Origin: Podarcis cretensis
Lineage: Eukaryota
Reading direction: 5' to 3'
DNA: 64,000 bases
NCBI GenBank assembly: GCA_951804945.1
Contig: OX638151.1
Coordinates: forward strand, 47,864,001 to 47,928,000
The translations under genes and the position numbers were made by a program. How positions within the stretch are numbered: position 1 is the first letter of the stretch; each line of letters opens with the position of its first letter. The notes beneath the pieces are model-generated. The model saw only the letters and a list, made by a program, of their open reading frames with translations, was not told the origin of the DNA and ran no database searches. Positions 8,765 through 60,869 of this stretch are shown piece after piece.

Positions 8765-8892
8765 TCCCTTCATGGATCACTGCCTTGCCGTGGCGAAGGG
8801 GCTTGAAGAACTCAGAGAAGCTATGAACTATGCCGAGCAGGGCACCCAAGATGAACAGGTCATAGTGGAGAGTTTTGACCAAACGTGATCCA
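8765..8892 (+). ncRNA. HDV-like self-cleaving ribozyme at BovB 5' end (predicted)
   Basis: P1 (T)CCCTTC 8765-8771/GAAGGGG 8795-8801; P2 GGATCAC 8774-8780/GTGATCC 8885-8891; P3 GCC/GGC around L3 TTGCCGT; extended P4 (AACTC/GAGTT, CTATGA/TCATAG, TGCC/GGCA); J4/2 C-C-A-A-A at 8879-8883. Confidence 0.75.
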
Positions 8893-8943
8893 CCTGGAGG
8901 AGGAACCGGCAAACCACTCCAGTATCCCTGCCAAGAAAACTCC

Positions 8944-11900
8944 ATGGACAAAGACAACAGGCATATAAAGGTTATGACGCTGGAAGATGAGCCCCTCAGG
9001 TCGGAAGGCGTCCAACATGCTACTGGGGAAGAGCGGAGGGCAAGTACAAGTAGATCCAGAGCTGATGAAGCGGCTGGGCCAAAGCCGAAAGGACGCTCAG
9101 TTGCGGATATGCCTGGAAGCGAAAGGAAAGTCCAATGCTGTAAAGAAAAATATTGCATAGGAACCTGGAATGTAAGAACCATGAACATGGGTAAGTTGGA
9201 GGTGGTCAAAAATGAGATGGCAAGAATAAATATGGACATCCTGGGCATCAGTGAACTAAAATGGACGGGAATGGGTGAATTCAGTTCGGATGACCATCAT
9301 ATCTACTACTGTGGGCAAGAAACCCGTAAAAGAAATGGAGTGGCCCTCATAGTCAACAAAAGAGTTGCAAAAGCTGTACTGGGATGCAATCTCAAAAATG
9401 ATAGAATGATCTCGATACGAATCCAAGGCAGACCTTTTAACATCGCAGTAATCCAAGTTTATGCACCAACTACTGGTGCTGAAGAAACTGAAATTGACCA
9501 ATTCTATGAAGACTTACAACACCTTATAGAAGTGACACCAAAGAAGGATGTTCTTCTCATTATAGGGGATTGGAATGCTAAAGTAGGGAGTCAAGAGATA
9601 AAAGGAACAACTGGCAAGTTTGGCCTTGGAGATCAAAACGAAGCAGGGCAAAGGCTAATAGAGTTCTGTCAAGAGAACAAGCTGGTCATCACAAACACGC
9701 TTTTCCAACAACACAAGAGACGACTCTACACATGGACATCACCAGATGGGCAGCATCGAAATCAGATTGATTATATTCTCTGCAGCAAAAGATGGAGAAG
9801 CTCTATACAGTCAGCAAAAACAAGACCTGGAGCTGACTGTGGCTCAGATCATCAGCTTCTTATAGCAAAATTCAAGCTTAAACTGAAGAAAGTAGGAAAA
9901 ACCACTGGGCCGGTAAGATACAATCTAAGTCAAATCCCTTATGAATACACAGTGGAAGTGAGGAACAGGTTTAAGGATTTAGATTTGGTGGACAGAGTGC
10001 CTGAAGAACTATGGATGGAGGCTCGTAACATTATACAGGAGGCAGCAACGAAAACCATCCCAATGAAAAGGAAATGCAAGAAAGCAAAGTGGCTGTCCAA
10101 TGAGGCCTTACAAATAGTGGGGGAGAGAAGGCAAGCAAAATGCAAGGGAGATCGGGAAACATACAGGAAATTGAATGCAGATTTCCAAAGAATAGCAAGG
10201 AGAGACAAGAAGACCTTCTTAAACAAGCAATGCAAAGAAATAGAGGAAAGCAATAGAATGGGAAGAACCAGAGATCTGTTCAAGAAAATTGGAGATATGA
10301 AAGGAACATTTCGTACAAAGATTTCCATAATAAAGGACAAAAGTGGAAAGGACCTAACAGAAGCAGAAGACATCAAGAAGAGGTGGCAAGAATACACAGA
10401 GGAATTATACCAGAAAGAAACGGATGTCTCATATACCCCAGGTAGTGTGGTTGCTGACCTTGAGCCAGACATCCTGGAGAGTGAAGTCAAATGGGCCTTA
10501 GAAAGCACTGCAAATAACAAGGCCAGTGGAAGTGATGGTATTCCAGCTGAACTATTTAAAATTTTAAAAGATGATGCTGTTAAGGTGCTACACTCAATAT
10601 GCCAGCAAGTTTGGAAAACTCAGCAGTGGCCAGAAGATTGGAGAAGATCAGTCTACATCCCAATCCCAAAGAAGGGCAGTGCCAAAGAATGCTCCAACTA
10701 TCGCACAATTGCACTAATTTCTCACGCTAGCAAGGTTATGCTTAAAATTCTACAAGGAAGGCTCAAGCAGTATGTGGACCGAGAACTCCCAGAAGTGCAA
10801 GCTGGATTTAGAAGAGGCAGAGGAACCAGAGACCAAATTGCAAACATGCGCTGGATTATGGAGAAAGCTAGAGAGTTCCAGAAAGACATTTACTTCTGCT
10901 TCATTGACTATGCAAAAGCCTTTGACTGTGTCGACCATGGCAAACTATGGCAAGTTCTTAAAGAAATGGGAGTGCCTGATCACCTCATCTGTCTCCTGAG
11001 AAATCTCTATGTGGGACAAGAAGCTACAGTTAGAACTGGATATGGAACAACTGACTGGTTCAAAATTGGGAAAGGAGTACGACAAGGCTGCATTTTGTCT
11101 CCCTGCTTATTTAACTTATATGCAGAATTCATCATGCGAAAGGCTGGGCTGGATGAATCCCTAGCCGGAATTAAGATTGCCGGAAGAAATATCAGCAACC
11201 TCAGATATGCAGATGACACAACCTTGATGGCAGAAAGTGAGGAGGAATTAAAGAACCTTTTATTGAGGGTGAAAGAGGAGAGTGCAAAATATGGTCTGAA
11301 GCTCAATATCAAAAAAACGAAGATCATGGCTACTGGTCCCATCACCTCCTGGCAAATAGAAGGGGAAGAAATGGAGGCAGTGAGAGATTTTACTTTCTTG
11401 GGCTCCATGATCACTGCAGATGGTGACAGCAGCCACGAAATTAAAAGACGCCTGCTTCTTGGGAGAAGGGCAATGGCAGGCCTAGACAGCATCTTGAGAA
11501 GTAGAGACATCACCTTGCCAACAAAGGTCCGTATAGTTAAAGCCATGGTTTTCCCAGTAGTGATGTATGGAAGTGAGAGCTGGACCATAAAGAAGGCTGA
11601 TCGCCGAAGAATTGATGCTTTTGAATTCTGGTGCTGGAGGAGACTCTTGAGAGTCCCATGGACTGCAAGAAGATCAAACCTCTCCATTCTGAAGGAAATC
11701 AGCCCTGAGTGCTCACTGGAAGGACAGATTGTGAAGCTGAGGCTCCAGTACTTTGGCCACCTCATGAGAAGAGAAGACTCCCTGGAGAAGACCCTGATGT
11801 TGGGAAAGATGGAGGGCACAAGGAGAAGGGGGCGACAGAGGACGAGATGGTTGGATAGTGTTTTCGAGGTTACCAGCATGAGTCTGACCAAGCTGCGGGG

Positions 11901-11976
11901 GGCAGTGGAGGACAGGAGTGCCTGGCGTTCTCTGGTTCATGGGGTCACGAAGAGTCGGACACGACTAAACGACTAA
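8944..11976 (+). CDS. BovB ORF: APE endonuclease + reverse transcriptase (1010 aa from first ATG; frame open from 8875)
   Basis: EN motifs IGTWNVRT, GISE, IIGDWNA, IDYIL, SDH; RT motifs QAGFRRGRGT, FIDYAKAFD, GVRQGCILSPCLFN, YADD; no stops or frameshifts. Confidence 0.95.
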   Translation: MDKDNRHIKVMTLEDEPLRSEGVQHATGEERRASTSRSRADEAAGPKPKGRSVADMPGSERKVQCCKEKYCIGTWNVRTMNMGKLEVVKNEMARINMDILGISELKWTGMGEFSSDDHHIYYCGQETRKRNGVALIVNKRVAKAVLGCNLKNDRMISIRIQGRPFNIAVIQVYAPTTGAEETEIDQFYEDLQHLIEVTPKKDVLLIIGDWNAKVGSQEIKGTTGKFGLGDQNEAGQRLIEFCQENKLVITNTLFQQHKRRLYTWTSPDGQHRNQIDYILCSKRWRSSIQSAKTRPGADCGSDHQLLIAKFKLKLKKVGKTTGPVRYNLSQIPYEYTVEVRNRFKDLDLVDRVPEELWMEARNIIQEAATKTIPMKRKCKKAKWLSNEALQIVGERRQAKCKGDRETYRKLNADFQRIARRDKKTFLNKQCKEIEESNRMGRTRDLFKKIGDMKGTFRTKISIIKDKSGKDLTEAEDIKKRWQEYTEELYQKETDVSYTPGSVVADLEPDILESEVKWALESTANNKASGSDGIPAELFKILKDDAVKVLHSICQQVWKTQQWPEDWRRSVYIPIPKKGSAKECSNYRTIALISHASKVMLKILQGRLKQYVDRELPEVQAGFRRGRGTRDQIANMRWIMEKAREFQKDIYFCFIDYAKAFDCVDHGKLWQVLKEMGVPDHLICLLRNLYVGQEATVRTGYGTTDWFKIGKGVRQGCILSPCLFNLYAEFIMRKAGLDESLAGIKIAGRNISNLRYADDTTLMAESEEELKNLLLRVKEESAKYGLKLNIKKTKIMATGPITSWQIEGEEMEAVRDFTFLGSMITADGDSSHEIKRRLLLGRRAMAGLDSILRSRDITLPTKVRIVKAMVFPVVMYGSESWTIKKADRRRIDAFEFWCWRRLLRVPWTARRSNLSILKEISPECSLEGQIVKLRLQYFGHLMRREDSLEKTLMLGKMEGTRRRGRQRTRWLDSVFEVTSMSLTKLRGAVEDRSAWRSLVHGVTKSRTRLND

Positions 11977-27289: not shown

Positions 27290-28050
27290 ACGTAAGAGCC
27301 CGCGACACCCTTACACAGAGGTTAGCCTGGGACGCGCTTAGAGTAAACGGACTCCCGGGGACGCTAAAACAGACGTGACTCCTTCCACATAGTTTAAGGG
27401 GGCGGGAGGGGGGGGAAAGGAAGAGTCCCGCGCGAACCCACCACGCATGCGCCACGCTCCAGCGGAAAGCGATGTGCGCTTGCGCAGTGCCGCTGGGAAA
27501 CGGCTAGCTTTCCTGCCCATGCGCTCGGCTGGCGGTCGCTGGCTGATGACGCGTTCCGCCCGCCGAAGGTAGCGTGTGTGTATGTGAGCTAGAGGAGCCG
27601 CGGTGGGCGGGGTCTTCCTCTTCTGCTGGCTCCAAGGTGGCTGTGAAGTACGAGGCGGGCTCGGCAGGCAGGATGATGGGGGGAAAGAGCAGCGCCATCG
27701 CCGCGGGCCTCTGCGGGGCTCTCTTCATCGGCTACTGCATCTACTTCGACCGCAAGAGGAGGAGCGACCCCAACTTCAAGAACCGGCTGCGGGAACGTGA
27801 GTCGCTCTCGGCCGCCCGCCCGCCGCCTCGTGCAGCCGCTTCCCCACTCCGCGCGGAGCCGGCCCTGGGTCGCCCCTCCGACCTGGCTCCCTCCCTGCCC
27901 CCCGCTCGATTGCCGGTCGGGCCTGTCAGGGTGGCCCTCCGGGGAAGCCCCGCTGCCTCCGAGGCTGCGGTTCCTTCCGCGGCGCGATGGAGGAGGGTCC
28001 TTGCTCGCCATGAGCGGGCGCGGGGATTTTGCGGGGCCCCGAGGACAAAG
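27290..28050 (+). promoter_or_regulatory. TOMM20: TOMM20 CpG-island promoter
   Basis: NRF1-type motifs ACGCATGCGC 27443-27452, TGCGCTTGCGCA 27475-27486, TGCCCATGCGC 27514-27524; GC box 27605-27612; pyrimidine tract 27613-27624. Confidence 0.82.
27673..27796 (+). CDS. TOMM20: TOMM20 exon 1 (mitochondrial import receptor Tom20; 5 exons, 146 aa)
   Basis: MMGGKSSAIAAGLCGALFIGYCIYFDRKRRSDPNFKNRLRE; C|gtgag. Confidence 0.97.
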
Positions 28051-31012: not shown

Positions 31013-32145
31013 TACAGATTTAGTACCCTATCCAGACTGGGAATCACCAGTGTACTGGCCAGGTGTGTGGACTACAACTTTTGTAGGCCCCAGCCAGCAC
31101 AGCCAGTGGTCAGGGATGATGAGCATTGGAGTCAGTAACGTCTGGAGCTACATTGCCACATTGGCTACCCTGATCCAGGCTGCCAAAGACCTGTCATATT
31201 TAAAATTGCTTTGTTAAAAGTCAGAAATTTCCTACCATGATTACATCACAACTACCCTATTTTAAAAAGATGACATAATAAATGATAAAATCTACCTGGG
31301 AATTTTCTGGTTGTAGTGTCCATTCCAGTACTCTGTGAAATGGTGTCAAATTGAGCATTTCTGCCTTTCTCAAAGTCTCAAGTCAATCATGTATTTTGTT
31401 ATCAGTCGGCAAATTGAGGTTTACTGTCCTCCATTTACTTGAAAAAATTATTCTAGTCGTAATGAGTACCTTGACCAGAAGTCCTTCTCAGTTCTGGGAT
31501 ACTAAGCCAAATATTGTCTGAAGGAATTATTTCTATTTTATTTTCTATTAAAAATGGCATCTGGGAATAAAGTGTTGGTAAATTGACTTAAATTCCCTTG
31601 GATATACAGTAAGATTTTCTATTAACTGAAGATGAGTGACAAATGAAAGTGCACAGCTAATGATTCTCCATTTTTCTGGTAACAAATCATAAACTGATTG
31701 TTTAATCAGTTTTGCTTTGAGATGAAAAATAAGCCCTCTTCAGCTTTTCAGAGGTTACATGGGGAACTAAAGCATGGAGGGGCTGCTTATGTCAACTCCA
31801 CTCCTAGCAGCCCCATGCCTGCCAGGACCTTTATGGGCTGATGCCAGAATTCTGAAAGGGTGTCTTTCCCAGTGTGTTTAGCTAGAATCCTCCTGAAGGC
31901 AGGGTAGAATCATGGTGGGATTCTGAGTATCTCTAGGCAAAAAGACAAAGAATCCCTCTACTGACCTTGCCATTTAATGTGAGAAGGTTCAGGGTGCAAG
32001 CTGGTGTGCTCTGCTTCACTATACTTTATTTAGTTCAGTTGTTCTAAATAGTCCATTTGTTCCATTGATGCTTCCAAATCTACTTTGAAGGTGAAGTTTA
32101 TGGCATGCAATTTTAAGCTAATTTAACATGCTTCGTATTTTACAG

Positions 32146-32288
32146 GAGAATATGAAAAGGGTGTTGATCACTTGACGAATGCCATTGCTGTGTGTGGACA
32201 ACCGCAGCAGTTACTACAAGTTCTGCAGCAGACGCTTCCGCCACCAGTGTTCCAGATGCTTCTCACTAAACTCCCCACAATTAGTCAG
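32146..32288 (+). CDS. TOMM20: TOMM20 exon 4
   Basis: GEYEKGVDHLTNAIAVCGQPQQLLQVLQQTLPPPVFQMLLTKLPTISQ. Confidence 0.97.
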
Positions 32289-44541: not shown

Positions 44542-45446
44542 TGTTGTATGCCACCCCAATCTCTGAGCGATGTGAGATTCCAGGGCTTCCAGGCACTTAT
44601 CCAGGATTCAGTGTCCTCAGAATGAGGGACAGCAGAGACTGTTGATAGTATGGTTTATTTACACACATATATACAACCTGAGCCAATGATGGAGGGACTC
44701 ACAGCATTAATACCCCAAGGCGGTCTTGTTTTTCCCATAGCCACAGCCTTAGATTCAAACAGAAATCAAGCATGGCTCTGTCTCTCCAGTTGCTGCTGCT
44801 TCTAGACCAGCTCTCACACATAGCTCTGCTTTAGTCATTCTAGGTAAAGGTAAAGGTAAAGGTACCCCTGCCCGTACGGGCCAGTCTTGACAGACTCTGG
44901 GGTTGTGCGCCCATCTCACTTAAGAGGCCAGGGGCCAGCGCTGTCCGGAGACACTTCCGGGTCACGTGGCCAGCGTGACATTGCTGCTCTGGCCAGAGCC
45001 AGAGCCAGAGCCAGAGCCGCACACGGAAACGCCGTTTACCTTCCCGCTGGTAAGCGGTCCCTATTTATCTACTTGCACCCGGAGGTGCTTTCGAACTGCT
45101 AGGTTGGCAGGCGCTGGGACCGAGCAGCGGGAGCGCACCCCGCCGCAGGGATTCGAACCGCCGACCTTTCGATCGGCAAGCCCTAGGCGCTGAGGCTTTA
45201 ACCCACAGCGCCACCTGCGTCCCTCTTAGTCATTCTAACTACCAGCCAATTGAGGGAGGAGGGTCCCCCCCCCATCTGCCCTCTTCCTTTGTTACGTTAA
45301 CGACCCATACTTAGGGGGCCATTGTCAAGAAGGTGGCCTGGTTATTTCAACAAGCAAGTCCTTGCTGGATCCAGGAATTACCGTAGAAGAGACTCCGGTA
45401 TACAGCCTACCCACCACTGCCTGCACCCTAAGTCCTGCTCACAACA
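44542..45446 (-). mobile_element. Solo LTR (~510 bp) interrupted by a SINE
   Basis: TGTT...AACA termini; flanks ATAT/CTAT; minus-strand TATA-like box and AATAAA; homologous to 26083-26548. Confidence 0.78.
44843..45223 (-). mobile_element. Sauria-type SINE nested in the LTR
   Basis: TSD TTAGTCATTCTA at 44831-44842 and 45226-45237. Confidence 0.92.
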
Positions 45447-51153: not shown

Positions 51154-52204
51154 GTAGATATGGTCTTCCTTAACTAGCTGCTTTAATCTTACCAACTCAT
51201 CTTAAAAAACAACAACAACACATTACCATTACTTTCATACAGAATGACTCCACTATGGACTCAATTTCTCTTTCAGATCTGACCATTATGTTTACTGCAC
51301 AAGGGTGAGATCATGTCACTGATCTATATCACGGCATTGCTGGTCTAGTGTCATCCTGTGCCAAAGCTATTTTTTTTTCTGAAGGGGGTTCATTTTTTAA
51401 AAAAGAATTAGGAGGTCACTGATACTACTTTGCATATTTTCCATTCTCCGAACACCCTTTCACTCTTACAGATGCACAGATAACATCACTCAGAAAGCAG
51501 GGTGAATTATGAGACACACAGACAGCTATAATCCTTCCTCCAGGGTTGTTCAGAGTTTTTTTTTTTTTTTGCTGAGTCCAAACCTGTACCACCAGCCTCT
51601 TTTGCAATGTGGCTGAAGGGCGAACGAAAGCTCTTTCTGCATTCCAAGGTGCAGGCAACATTTGTGTTACATTTTATACCAGGAAGCCTACATGATGTGG
51701 GGGAAATCCCACAGCTCATGTGTTGTTTTTCAGTGGTGGTGGTTTTTCTCCATTTGTCTAGATTATTTGATGTGTTGGGATTAAGGTATTTAGCTGACAG
51801 AGGTACAAATGAAATGCCTGCAGCTTTACTGCATGCCATTTGTGTGGTGCTGTGTTACACTATGACCAAGTAGCTTGGAGGTAGGCTAGTGGGACTAGGT
51901 AACAACTTCACCTGATCCAATATGTCATTGCAAGCAAAATCAGCAGATGTAATGAAGCTGGTCTTCAATAAATAATGAAAAAAGTGTTTTTATTTGGAGG
52001 CAGAAGTTGATTATCTTGAGATGCAGCACAAGACCCTTTGAAGATGATACAGGTTACCATGTCCAGCATGATATAAATGATTGGTCTTGGGTGAGCATGT
52101 GGTCAGGATTTGCTTCTGGTTGTGATCGTTTTGTATGTGACCAGATAGTTTTGTGTAGGGAAGGAATAATAAGGAAAAGGAGTATTAGAGTGCAGTTAAG
52201 AATG

Positions 52205-52547
52205 TGGGTTAAAGCCTCAGCGCCTAGGGCTTGCCGATCGAAAGGTCGGCGGTTTGAATCCCTGCGGCGGGGTGCGCTCCCGCTGTTCGGTCCCAGCGCC
52301 TGCCAACCTAGCAGTTCGAAAGCACCTCTGGGTGCAAGTAGATAAATAGGGACCGCTTACCAGCGGGAAGGTAAACGGCGTTTCCGTGTGCGACTCTGGC
52401 TCGTCAGAGCAGCGATGTCACGCTGGCCACGTGACCCGGAAGTGTCTCCGGACAGCGCTGGCCCCTGGCCTCTTAAGTGAGCTGGGCGCACAACCCCAGA
52501 GTCTGTCAAGACTGGCCCGTATGGGCAGGGGTACCTTTACCTTTACC
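52205..52547 (+). mobile_element. Sauria-type SINE, slightly 5'-truncated
   Basis: TSD TAAGAATG at 52197-52204 and 52548-52555; (ACCTTT)n tail. Confidence 0.9.
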
Positions 52548-53059
52548 TAAGAATGGAGATGTATTCTTACTTTTGCTTTCATTGTTCTAGGACAATAATC
52601 TTCAACTTCCCCCATGTTGATTAATTCCAAAATAACTGCAGTGTCCACCATGGAAATCAGGTGTTGCAGAAGATTCTAGGGCATGTTCTTGAAAAGACTT
52701 CCCCAACTTAGTGCTCTCCAGATATTCTGGACTACAACTCCCATCAGATCCAGCCAGCACGGCCAACATCTGAACAGCATCAGGTTGGAAAGGCTATTCT
52801 AGGGTGTAGGTAAACTTATGAGTGCAGTCTATTATGCTCATCAGGGAAGATGAATGGCAAGTGGAAGGTTGTCTGCTATTGCTGATATTCAGTTCTCAGT
52901 TATTTTTTTCTCTCTGGAAGCCACTGTTTCAGGACATGTCATGAGGCAGTTTGCATTGTTGCTACACCTTGCCTATGGGTAGAATATTCTTAAGTTACAA
53001 TGCTGTCAACACAGATCCTTGCTCACTGCATTAAATCAATATTTCCTTTTTCTCAATAG

Positions 53060-55944: not shown

Positions 55945-56098
55945 TTTTTAGTCCAAATGTGTCACAATAACCACTGAGCAAAAAACATGGTCAGGAAATT
56001 TGGTTACAGATAGGTAGCCGTGTTGGTCTGCCATAGTCAAAACAAAATAAAAAAATTCCTTCCAGTAGCACCTTAAAGACCAACTAAGTTAGTTCTTG

Positions 56099-56136
56099 GT
56101 ATGAGCTTTCGTGTGCATGCACACTTCTTCAGATAC
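56099..56136 (-). ncRNA. Minimal type I hammerhead ribozyme motif (inverted pLTR)
   Basis: Exact reverse complement of 56663-56700. Confidence 0.72.
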
Positions 56137-56248
56137 ACTGAAACAGAAGTCACCAGACCCTTCTATATAGTGAGAAGGTGGGGAGGGGTATTACTCAGAA
56201 GGGTGGTGGGATTGGGTGATTGGCAGATAGCTGAGATGAGCCTGTTGA

Positions 56249-56482
56249 ATAAACGGACATAAATCTGACATCAGGAATCACAAGACAGAGAAACCAGTAG
56301 GAGAACACTTCAATCTCCCAGGACATTCTATACAAGATCTCAAAGTAGCTGTTCTATTACAAAGGAATTTCAGAAATAGACTAGAAAGAGAAGCTGCTGA
56401 ATTGCAACTTATTACCAAACTTAAAACCATGGAGAGACCTGGTCTGAACAAAGACATTGGATTCTTATCTCATTATACATGA
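56249..56482 (+). pseudogene. Penelope GIY-YIG endonuclease C-terminal fragment (77 aa, open frame)
   Basis: INGHKSDIRNHKTEKPVGEHFNLPGHSIQDLKVAVLLQRNFRNRLEREAAELQLITKLKTMERPGLNKDIGFLSHYT*; conserved H..HF...E...I..L....GLN pattern. Confidence 0.85.
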
Positions 56483-56662
56483 CAAAGCCATTTTTCACCT
56501 TCTCACCCCTTGCTTTTTCCTGTAAGACCTATTGCAGTCGTTAAGAGTCGTCAACAGGCTCATCTCAGCTATCTGCCAATCACCCAATCCCACCACCCTT
56601 CTGAGTAATACCCCTCTCTACCTTCTCACTATATAGAAGGGTCTGGTGACTTCTGTTTCAGT

Positions 56663-56700
56663 GTATCTGAAGAAGTGTGCATGCACACGAAAGCTCATAC
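56663..56700 (+). ncRNA. Minimal type I hammerhead ribozyme motif
   Basis: GTAT-CTGAAGA-A-GTGTGCATGCACAC-GAAA-GCTC-ATAC; predicted cleavage after C56696. Confidence 0.75.
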
Positions 56701-57071
56701 CAAGAACTAACTTAGTTGGTCTTTAAGGTGCTACTGGAAGGAATTTTTTTAGGAAATTTGGTGTTCCATATTATGTTCAGATAACTAGACAGCACTTGTA
56801 GTGTTATTTAAAGGGGATGTGATAAATGTTTTTCCATCCAAATGCATCATTCCCTGATGTATTGTTAAAAAAACCTTTGATAGTATTTAATTATTGGATT
56901 CCAGAAAAATGGCATCCACACTATTTTCTCTAGTATTTGATCCCTTATTCTCTTTCTTGATAAGTCAGATGTTGTTTGTCTCATTGCAGTCACATTCTGT
57001 CCTATGCATTTAAGGGACTGGTTTGTGTTGATTTTTGAAGCCTCTGTCACAGTGATAGCACAAACTTTCTG

Positions 57072-58240
57072 TTTTTTTTTTTTAATAATAATATTTATTA
57101 AATTTTGTATAACCAATAAAAGGCATTCATAATAACATAATATTTTCCATTATCCACATTTCATTCTCAACTTTGGACTTCCTCACATCTCTTGTTCCTG
57201 CTTTCTAAACATAAATTTTACCAGCAAATTATTAACTTGATTTAATTCATATAATATAATTTTCCAATATTTAATGTCTCAAATTTTGGGATTTAACATA
57301 CTCTTATTGAAGCTTCATCATAAAATATTAATTATCCCAAATTTATCTTTTCATCTTCCGATTGAATTTAAATTTATATTCTTTATAACTAGTTTGTTGA
57401 AGCCATGTTTTTGCTAATCTTACATCTTTCTTAACAATCATACAATTTACAATATTTTTGTAGATAGTCCTTGAATTTCTTCCAGTCTTCCTCCACCAGT
57501 TCTTCTCCCAGGTCTCGGATTCTGCCCGTCATCTCCGCCAGTTCCATATAGTCTATCAGTTGCATCTGCCATTCTTCCAGTGTGGGTAATTCTTGAGCTT
57601 TCCAGCTTTTAGCGATGAGTATCCTTGCTGCTGTTGTAGCGTACATAAAAAAGGTTCGATCCTTCTTTTGCACACTCTGACCAACAATGCCCAAGAGAAA
57701 GGCCTCTGGTTTCTTAGGGAAGGTATACTTAAATACCTTTTTCAGTTCATTATACATCATTTCCCAGAAAACCTTCACTCTAGGGCAAGTCCACCAGAGG
57801 TGAAAGAATGTTCCTTCAGCTTCTTTACACTTCCAACATTTATTATCAGACACATGGTATATCTTTGCAAGCTTGATTGGGGTCATGTACCACCTGTATA
57901 TCATTTTCATAATATTTTCTTTCAAGGCATTACATGCCGTAAATCTCAAACCTGTGGTCCATAACTTTTCCCAGTCAGCAAACATGATGTTGTACCCTAT
58001 GTCCTGTGCCCATTTTATCATGGCTGATTTGACCATTTCATCCTGTGTATTCCATTTTAACAGCAAATTATACATTCTTGAAAGTATCTTAGAGCTGGGT
58101 TCTAACAGTTCAGTTTCTAACTTTGATTTTTCCACCTGGAATCCTACCTTTATCCAACTTGAAAACTTCTTTAATCTGAGCATAATGTAGCCAATCTCGC
58201 ACTTTATCTTTTATTTTATCCATACTCTGCAACCTCCAGT
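57072..58240 (-). mobile_element. 5'-truncated L1-clade LINE
   Basis: Poly(A) tail; 19-bp TSD TGATAGCACAAACTTTCTG at 57053-57071 and 58241-58259. Confidence 0.92.
57431..58183 (-). pseudogene. L1 ORF2 C-terminal fragment with CCHC zinc knuckle
   Basis: IYRWYMTP...CWKCKEAEGTFFHLWWTC; frame open for 250 codons. Confidence 0.85.
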
Positions 58241-58399: not shown

Positions 58400-58773
58400 G
58401 GGACGCAGGTGGTGCTGTGGGTTAAAGCCTCAGCGCCTAGGGCTTGCCGATCGAAAGGTCGGCGGTTCGAATCCCTGCGGTGGGGTGCGCTCCCGCTGCT
58501 CGGTCCCAGCGCCTGCCAACCTAGCAGTTCGAAAGCACCTCCGGGTGCAAGTAGATAAATAGGGACCGCTTACCAGTGGGAAGGTAAACAGCGTTTCCGT
58601 GTGCGGCTCTGGCTCTGGCTCTGGCTCTGGCCAGAGCAGCGATGTCACGCTGGCCACGTGACCCGGAAGTGTCTCCGGACAGCGCTGCCCCCTGGCCTCT
58701 TAAGTGAGATGGGCGCACAACCCCAGAGTCTGTCAAGACTGGCCCGTACGGGCAAGGGTACCTTTACCTTTTT
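58400..58773 (+). mobile_element. Sauria-type SINE
   Basis: GGGACGC 5' end; B box GGTTCGAATCC; TSD TAATATGACATCCTA at 58384-58398 and 58774-58788. Confidence 0.93.
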
Positions 58774-60869
58774 TAATATGACATCCTACTGCTGCAGAGT
58801 TCTTGCGACTGAACCTGCAGCTAGTCCCAGAACATGTTTCAAGATGAAATGAGGTGCAATTGACGAATATCTTTTCAAGTTCATTTTTTACCTACCTCAC
58901 AGTTGTACCTGGACTTCAGAGATGAATAAATAGTTCATCAATTTCATGTGGCAGAGGGAACTCAATCTGAGGAATGGCTTGGGATGGATGAAGTTTCCCA
59001 GTGTGGCTCTCCCCCTGGAAAAGAGGGATCCATTGCATAGGAGATGCACTTTGAAGGACTAGCACTGAACTGGGCTAAGGCTTGAAGAGCATTAGAAAAA
59101 GAATAGCTTTTTGTTGCTATCTAGAAGGACCCATTATTTCATAATTACACAAAGAAGCTAGAACTGGCTATAGGGAGATGCTCTTAAAGCTTCCTTTGAT
59201 CACAGCAATGTTTTTTATCCACTCCTTCCATCTTACGAGGCCATGTTTGCTTCAGTTTTATGGCAACATCTTGGCAGGGTGCCACTTGGACTCATGGTAG
59301 GGAAGGTATGAAAGAATGGCAAAATGAGTGAGAGGGATAAATGGAATCCGCAGCTGTTAAACCACAAGAAAAGAAAGTCTGGCCAAGACACACACACCAC
59401 CAGATGAGATAACGTGCCCACAGAGCTATACATGTGTGGAACCAGTCACAGAAAGGCTCCTATGCGCCAAACTTGGTGTTTGGCAAATTCTTATCTGTCA
59501 TCATCGCTTGTATAATTAGTCATGTGCTTCACTGACATAAACCACAATTAGTGCCAGCTCCACCAAATATCAACTGGGTTAAAAAGAAAGAAAGACGTCA
59601 CAGATTCAGGCCTAGACTGCAACATGGATAGGACTTTTATTTGGTTTAGCAGTGTGGAGCACCTCTTCAGCAAGGGTACACCAAGGCAGTTGACTTGCAG
59701 CTTGCTGAGGACACAGAGTGTAGCCTCTGTCCATTAGCAAAGCAGGTTGTTCACCTATGGAAGCCTTATAAGCCCTATTGAGGCACTGCGGTTGTGATGG
59801 GAAAACGTCAACAGAAAAGGGCTTTAGGGTCACGCCTCCAAGGGTGGGCGACCTGTGGCCATCCAGATGCTGAACTACAGCTTCCAACATCCCTGACCAT
59901 TGAACATGCTAACTAGGGCTGATGGGAATTGGAGTCCAACAGCATCTCGAAAGCCACAGGTTCCCCACTCCTGCCCAGGTGGAAGCTACTATCTATTAAA
60001 AACACCACCGCCAAAATGCCCATAGGGTGATTCTGCTTCTGTTCATCATATCTGGCAATAATACGTTTCTCATCTTCTTCTACTGACCAGTGAGGAATCT
60101 TAATTATAAATACTAGCTTGGAAACAACTGAGAAACCATTGTTCAAGAACAGGTAGGCAGAGATTCTCACACCTCCACAGGACGCTTGCTGCTTGATTTT
60201 AAAATAATGTAGTAGCCTGTGGGAGGGCAAGTTAGGGATTATGCTATAATTGGCATTATGTTATCTGGAAGAACTTGCTCTGCCCATGCAAGTCGAAGAC
60301 TCTGCTTCTTCAAACATGTGCTGCTTGTTGTGCATGTCTGGCTGTAGCGATTAGAGAGATAAATGATGAAAAGGCATGGGAGGTTTTTCCCCCTCTTCCT
60401 TTTTTATTTTTGCACGTATGGATGGATGTTAAAATACCAGCCCACATGGGCCCCTCAGCTCCTCAGGGTAGCTCACAATGATACTACTGAGAGAAACTGC
60501 AACAATGAAAATGTAAATAAAACAGAAATCAGGAAGGGAAAAAAAGCAAGCGAGTAGTGGGAAGCTTTGCAACTCTCCCCAAAATGCCCCCAAAAATCAT
60601 GCAAATAAGTTACTGGATAGTAACACCAACTGCCAGGTAAAATATAAAGCCAGATCAATTGCTGACCCTGTAAGACTGCAAGAACAGAAGGTTTTATGAT
60701 CCTCTTAATGCACATAAGTAGAAGTGCTGGGACTGGGAATTATAGAGTAGGTTCACTCCACAGCTGAGAAGAATGGGCTCCTTGTGCCAGGTGCCCTAGC
60801 CTCAGACAAAGTTGGCACACAGAGCTGAGCCTCACCTGGCAACCAAAAACCTGAATTAGATTTGAAATT

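Follow-up and report, generated by a model that had tools for sequence, protein, structure and literature searches.

The insert at 56005-56750 of the window, by which the whole 64-kb stretch of DNA under analysis is meant, derives from an abundant Neptune-like Penelope retroelement; it is truncated, has the head-to-head layout and is flanked by a TSD of 12 bp. Counts over the family suggest that an insertion is likely the product of two copying events, one on each of the cut DNA strands, with a template RNA that the hammerhead had likely left intact. The locus itself is ordinary and of a known kind, since publications already exist on the minimal hammerhead, on the inverted pLTR and on siRNAs that stem from inverted repeats of Penelope. 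Taken by itself it is of little weight, and the family counts are more informative. The family is young; with some 10,000 arms that can be scored, a one-tail rule that is sharp and a mapped, putative RNA 5′ end, its statistics yield predictions that bear directly on the in vitro assay already established for PLEs.

Architecture of the insert and its hammerhead motifs

The features of the insert are compiled in Table 1. Its two arms (56048-56248 and 56551-56751, 201 nt each) are 99% complementary with two mismatches, at 56617 and 56619, and a fragment of the GIY-YIG C-terminus sits between them. The 77-aa ORF fragment of the insert alone has no significant match in Pfam; longer sibling copies match both GIY-YIG and RVT_1. 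The codons for MADQHGYLSV in the left-arm tail correspond to the start of the 910-aa ORF of the full-length copy L137.

Table 1. Features of the insert and its immediate borders (window coordinates).
Feature	Position	Strand	Remarks
Left TSD copy	55993..56004	.	12 bp
Left-arm tail	56005..56047	-	contains opening ORF codons, ATG 56034-56032, MADQHGYLSV
Left pLTR arm	56048..56248	-	inverted, 5′-truncated
Left-arm minimal type I hammerhead motif	56099..56136	-	predicted cut 3′ of C56103
Head-to-head junction	56247..56248	.	arms overlap by 2 nt
RT/GIY-YIG ORF end	56249..56482	+	77 last codons and stop
Right-arm 3′ UTR / pLTR	56483..56750	+	without tail
Promoter-like motifs, right arm	56576..56662	+	motif positions; mirrored on left arm; putative function
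Putative template-RNA 5′ end (likely transcription start)	56660..56667	+	pile-up of sibling-arm starts
Right-arm minimal type I hammerhead motif	56663..56700	+	predicted cut 3′ of C56696
Right TSD copy	56751..56762	.	12 bp

The complete copy L137 comprises an inverted pLTR, a direct 5′ pLTR, the ORF, which begins in the tail, and a 3′ pLTR; the right arm of the insert is identical to it at 491 of 504 positions. Its single ORF harbors RVT_1 (E 2e-11), a CX4CX2C linker (CNKPRCQLC, residue 770) ahead of the EN, and, at the C-terminus, a GIY-YIG domain (E 3e-5). The family fits the Neptune clade with respect to domains, linker and pLTR layout, as described in the excerpts of PMC8557442. The PLE features, namely pLTRs, an inverted 5′ copy and a one-sided tail, are all present in the family. 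Judged by sequence features and by the ORF domains of siblings, the sequence-only reading was correct in identifying a Penelope-like element with minimal hammerheads.

Within the genome, the 3′ pLTR 21-mer has 10,934 exact matches, a 25-mer across 56649-73 in the start region 2,828, and a 24-mer close to the ORF start 69. The sample employed for the family counts consists of 30 loci of the core 29-mer and of 74 stretches of contig C1 (0-8 Mb), the latter taking in every locus among the first 100 listed matches on that contig of either the core 29-mer or the 3′ 21-mer; 10 overlapping loci were removed as duplicates. Sibling positions are given in window-equivalent numbering. The insertion census used matches of at least 85% identity and comprises 107 insertions, that of the window included.

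The hammerhead core CTGAAGA-A-GTGTGCATGCACAC-GAAA-GCTC is located at 56667-56696 on the plus strand and at 56132-56103 on the minus strand. Stem I of the right arm is formed by GTAT (56663-66) and ATAC (56697-700) over 4 bp, stem II by the 14-nt perfect palindrome at 56675-88, and stem III by AGCT without a loop (56692-95), with the CUC triplet ending at C56696. CUGANGA, GAAA and the NUH core of the metazoan PLE min-HHR (type I) are present, as are the additional base lying between 9 and 10.1 (A56674), the G10.1-C11.1 pair (G56675-C56688), a short helix I (GUAU/AUAC) and the palindromic 15.2-16.2 (AGCU); the position in a PLE pLTR is likewise that of the metazoan PLE min-HHR. Core, stem I, palindrome, AGCT and CUC thus stand in both pLTR arms as the earlier reading had claimed; the TSD, the one-sided tail, the GIY-YIG fragment and the promoter-like motifs had escaped it. 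Of the checks that it proposed, the scan with hammerhead covariance models gave no match to any Rfam model, neither across 12 kb at E<=1 nor across 111 nt at E<=10. The core 29-mer is found 8,485 times as an exact match in the 1.5-Gb genome and its reversed control not once, so that the motif is not a product of chance. The insert lacks the tandem head-to-tail hammerhead units of a non-LTR retrozyme, as the locus contains no direct repeat of the unit.

At a CpG site of the motif, G12 is replaced by A in 12 of 144 family arms and C11.1 by T in 6. Conservation of the motif within the family was dropped as a test of selection, since the copies are young and decay neutrally. At the locus L034, G12A is found on both arms; a hammerhead-dead template was perhaps retrotransposed there, or the arms were homogenised later.

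A genome-wide search with a motif pattern carrying U at position 7 returned 51 matches (control 0), of which 28, chosen mostly as non-family variants, were inspected. Pairing of the stems was scored at those positions which the search pattern leaves free and amounts, with kinship ignored, to 69% for stem I (shuffled 55%, maximum 67%) and 62.5% for stem II (shuffled 47%, maximum 62.5%); position 17 is never G. A tblastn match to the ORF, and with it linkage to a PLE, was obtained at only 1 of the 32 variant-motif loci searched. By eye, a perfect palindrome of this kind, here of 14 nt and serving as stem II plus loop, is not found in the 27 other variants. According to folding calculations, the palindromic stem II duplex reaches -33 kcal/mol versus -12.7 kcal/mol for the active dimer, and dimers in trans may for this reason be trapped as the stem II duplex. 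A sister PLE family with a 15-nt variant of stem II was encountered at G000:C3:120554381-120730831 and at C12:4005087 (L179), with 85% amino-acid identity across the last 143 residues; the distances of 39-50 kb from one to the next of five copies point to segmental duplication in tandem.

Paired arms, tails and the template RNA

Head-to-head insertions account for 52 of the 107 sampled and single-armed ones for 55. Exactly one of the two arms is tailed in 48 of the 52 pairs, where 26 would be expected if tails were independent (p=6e-11). TSD-like matches of at least 9 nt are found at 42 of 52 head-to-head and at 21 of 55 single-armed insertions. Among 13 long loci, 8 possess an arm in the opposite orientation, and each of these 8 carries a single tail. 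The 3′ ends of arms are bimodal, at about 56760-62 and about 56797-98, the modes lying 38 nt apart. Of the 45 tight pairs with one tail, 25, among them the insert at 56005-56750, have a tailless arm that extends further 5′ than its partner; in 15 the tailed arm does so, and in 5 both are equal. Of 48 informative sites, 28 have the minor allele on both arms of the pair, against a mean of 5.5% in shuffled pairs (maximum 30%), and 20 are discordant, six of them representing the CpG at G12. The arm lengths of 17 long pairs show no correlation (rho 0.02).

These scars are most readily explained by a single event, and it is probable that the insert was made by nicking of both target strands and synthesis of two target-primed cDNAs on an RNA whose hammerhead was uncut. 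The element protein would nick both strands, each nick priming one cDNA. One cDNA would begin at the tail end (about 56798) and the other at the pLTR end (about 56760), and the growing ends would be joined via short microhomology, here the 2 nt at 56247-48. Short arms would represent run-offs at the 5′ end of the RNA; long arms, such as those of the present insert, would depend on a template jump or else on priming from the 3′ pLTR copy. The two hammerheads would merely be passengers, and being on opposite strands they cannot form a tandem dimer in cis. This model is based on insertion scars sampled within the initial 8 Mb of a single contig, and it is supported by RNA reads of a related species that break off at the same boundaries as the genomic arms. 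The TSD, the one-tail rule, the frequent longer tailless arm, the alleles shared by paired arms, the pile-up of 5′ ends described below and the in vitro work on Poseidon speak for it; the discordant sites, the missing length correlation of long pairs, the single-armed insertions with their few TSD-like matches and the ORF-5′ pieces that reach beyond the putative RNA start speak against it.

Fold-back has been proposed for the PLEs of Adineta (excerpts of PMC3846280), and the tail has been ascribed to EN-mediated resolution (PMC8557442). In such a scheme one cDNA or an antisense template self-primes and is copied back, and the endonuclease later trims one tail. The alleles common to paired arms and the many junctions that overlap by few nt within the GTGT/palindrome region speak for it. 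Copy-back of a target-primed cDNA, however, cannot bear a tail that is absent from the first arm, and the simple form is disfavoured since the tailless arm is so often the longer one. Fold-back is viable only via a hypothetical free hairpin DNA intermediate with later trimming and is regarded as unlikely.

Breakpoints vary among the 52 pairs and recurring junction types are short only, which led to rejection of a self-propagating foldback/MITE family. L015 and L016 exhibit the same junction without stem II; as their flanks differ and the tails are on opposite arms, this junction recurred independently. At L135 and L136 the inverted arms exceed 1 kb and are 100% and 99.8% identical within the locus, compared to about 99.3% between loci.

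The right arm contains CCAAT at 56576 and 56584, TATA at 56630 and the Inr-like TCAGT at 56658; the motifs are mirrored, facing outward on both arms. Their spacing matches that of the core-promoter consensus. Of 135 arms with at least 90% identity, 40 have their 5′ end at 56660-67 (5.0 per nt), i.e. at the first bases of the hammerhead and about 30 nt downstream of TATA, as compared to 2 in the predicted cut region 56694-700 (0.29 per nt) and a density of 0.04-0.18 per nt at 56201-56640. A stricter sample of 99 arms, picked on the 3′ 21-mer and not on the hammerhead, gave 31 ends at 56660-67 and 2 at the cut site. The genome-wide exact counts, 2,828 across the start against 8,485 for the core and 10,934 for the 3′ 21-mer, agree with such ends. 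A non-templated G stands before seven of the nine arms that begin at G56663; in front of the 13 arms beginning at 56661 there is always a T, possibly caused by GT microhomology.

Similar ends are observed for the 5′ part of the ORF, for which 30 of the 69 loci with an ORF start were inspected and their layouts read by eye. The ORF-5′ piece starts at 56659-66 in 10 loci (three seemingly duplicated); a single locus has its start at the predicted cut site, and in at least 6 the piece reaches upstream of the putative RNA start. A pLTR arm in the same orientation follows directly in 21 of the 30 loci and begins at 56658-66 in 15 of these 21 (L188 and L189 seemingly being duplicates). The resulting tandems look like the product of RT jumping from the 5′ end of the RNA. 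Judged from these ends, the RNA likely starts about 30 nt 3′ of TATA with the hammerhead as its first 40 nt. Templates would usually contain an intact hammerhead, because arm and ORF-5′ ends cluster at 56660-67 and rarely fall at the cut site.

A 3′ splice site, composed of a pyrimidine tract and CAG at 56659-61, or a stall of the RT could in principle produce the same pile-up in place of a transcription start. The letters at 56659-61 are indeed acceptor-like, and in D. virilis an intron ends where helix I starts on its 5′ side (PMC4209133, in part). Splicing, however, needs one common upstream exon, whereas upstream of the arms only unrelated flank or the inverted arm is found. An RT would reach the 3′ side of the structure first, yet ends are rare there. 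Both readings are improbable, as the spacing to TATA suits a start and the non-templated G before arms beginning at G56663 is expected from a copied cap.

The model put forward in PMC4209133 assigns the hammerhead a different role: both pLTRs are cleaved by it in vivo and ligation turns the unit into a circle, with long arms resulting from rolling-circle RT and short arms from uncut linear RNA. As this concerns the template, it is compatible with twin priming. L137 exceeds one unit and regains the promoter, as a circle would permit, and the stems covary across older motif families of the genome. Furthermore, both arms are short in 29 pairs and long in 20, with 3 mixed pairs instead of the 25 expected, although trimming at the junction could inflate this concordance and priming at the 5′ or the 3′ pLTR copy yields it as well. 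Tandem pieces arise without any circle if the RT leaves the RNA 5′ end and lands at internal sites that vary, and 5′ ends are not in excess at the cut site in either arm sample or among the ORF-5′ pieces (2/135, 2/99 and 1/30). Cutting and circularization are thus considered rather unlikely. As a tentative and broader proposal, which may well prove wrong, the insertion scars would be an in vivo record in which a protein dimer primes both strands from the two start sites that bound the tail, capped RNA from the first base of the hammerhead is copied uncut and RT jumps build partial tandems; the hammerhead would then act as an off-switch that takes away the cap, or stem II with its palindrome would signal RNA dimerisation, and circle processing would not be its role.

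Masking, transcription and silencing

RNA reading through the insert is predicted to fold into a 201-bp hairpin of -472 kcal/mol, in which the probability is 0.9995 that the bases of the hammerhead are paired to the opposite arm and 0.00 that stems I and II form. The sequence-only reading had held that such a hairpin masks the ribozyme in either direction of transcription. The masking geometry is borne out by the folding model, and it applies only to read-through from outside, since each arm keeps its outward CCAAT/TATA/Inr-like motifs. RNA from these promoter-like motifs would begin at the hammerhead and would not include the other arm.

Four raw RNA runs of a related species were mapped to the repeat-free L137 unit. 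Reads of the pLTR are about equal on both strands, and 66-85% of them continue into unrelated sequence; the loose read ends gather at positions equivalent to 56661-64, 56752-60 and 56796-98, in agreement with the genomic boundaries. ORF reads are strand-biased in two bulk runs, probably sense. Some fold-back RNAs exist in this species, as opposite-strand joints occur in all four runs. Over the element, A>G/T>C changes did not exceed G>A/C>T in the four runs, and a pile-up of molecule ends was seen neither at the cut site nor at the putative start, so that the start at 56660-67 receives no direct support from the RNA-seq of the related species. For the insert itself, the RNA of that species (6-12% of each run) shows no sign of read-through where the left flank is unique. 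It is probably intergenic, as the MAS20 exons are far upstream and the unique left-flank bins are of near-zero depth.

According to the earlier reading the inverted structure might silence itself, acting as a unit that masks its ribozymes and yields dsRNA or siRNA against the family. The predicted hairpin with its full masking is in line with this, as are the opposite-strand joints in 4/4 runs of a related species, where some head-to-head copies are transcribed through. Moreover, siRNAs map to inverted Penelope regions in transgenic Drosophila (excerpt of PMC3681739). On the other hand, unique bins of the left flank have zero or near-zero depth and the covered bins match repeats (one related species, 6-12% of each run), and the last detected exon of the MAS20-domain gene lies about 24 kb upstream of the insert. 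Self-silencing is plausible as a side effect at the level of the family but already known as such, and for the insert it is doubtful. The notion of a self-silencing device gives way to that of a routine insertion by-product, as head-to-head copies make up about half of the census (52/107).

Further features were noted in the window. The MAS20 exons (TOMM20-like) are located at 27703-27813 and 32142-32264 on the plus strand; a second MAS20 gene lies on C1 near 8.13 Mb and a stop-containing copy on C7. An uninterrupted frame of 1036 aa with APE endonuclease and RT domains (8866-11976, plus strand) resembles an RTE/BovB-type LINE, and a 259-aa frame without Pfam match (57431-58210, minus strand) resembles the 3′ end of an L1/Tx1-like LINE. 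A SINE-like repeat of about 360 bp, similar to Sauria SINEs, occurs three times (44848-45223, 52203-52548 and 58400-58771; 93-98% alike); going by this similarity, a lizard is the probable host. A small inverted-repeat element with 34-nt arms at 59839-59973 gives weak, sub-threshold matches to miRNA models.

Comparison with known systems

In the twin priming of L1 elements both target strands prime, which leads to a 5′ inversion, and the two cDNAs span different parts of one RNA. Both strands would prime in the present family as well, whereas here both cDNAs span the same pLTR. No proposal of twin priming for PLEs was found in the titles and abstract openings of the papers that a literature search listed.

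Minimal hammerheads with low activity as dimers have been described in the pLTRs of metazoan PLEs, reptiles (turtle, snakes) included, and opposite-strand pairs of min-HHR lie 100-700 bp apart (PMC4209133, in part). The motif of the insert has the same core, extra nucleotide, G10.1-C11.1 pair, 4-bp helix I and loopless palindromic 15.2-16.2 as those in the excerpts of PMC4209133. It differs in that stem II and its loop constitute a perfect 14-nt palindrome, and activity is here a prediction. Motifs from Neptune elements of lizards may already be contained in the supplements of PMC4209133 and PMC11167929.

For EN+ PLEs an inverted 5′-truncated copy, a one-sided tail and TATA/Inr motifs have been reported together with the idea of self-priming (excerpts of PMC8557442 and PMC3846280). 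The inverted pLTR, the tail with the first ORF codons, the TSD, and TATA and Inr are shared with the present family. In contrast to the self-priming and EN resolution considered in these excerpts, the counts reported here favour two primed cDNAs.

The closest functional parallel is the in vitro work on Poseidon of Anolis carolinensis (PAc), where, according to the excerpts of PMC11167929, both target strands are cut and extended, two internal RT starts bound the tail and uncleaved RNA is the main substrate. The hammerhead is protein-assisted there and dispensable for insertion, and no RNA ends occur at the cut site. A term search of PMC11167929 returned neither 'head-to-head' nor a passage on inverted insertions. 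PAc belongs to a different PLE family: the family described here has the CX2-5CxxC linker ahead of the EN, a feature of Neptune that is also found in Nematis (PMC8557442, in part), and its ATG lies in the tail, downstream of the hammerhead, whereas that of Poseidon is at stem II. Common to both are the RT starts bounding the tail, the extension on two strands and the uncut RNA, observed in vitro for PAc and read from insertion scars in the present family.
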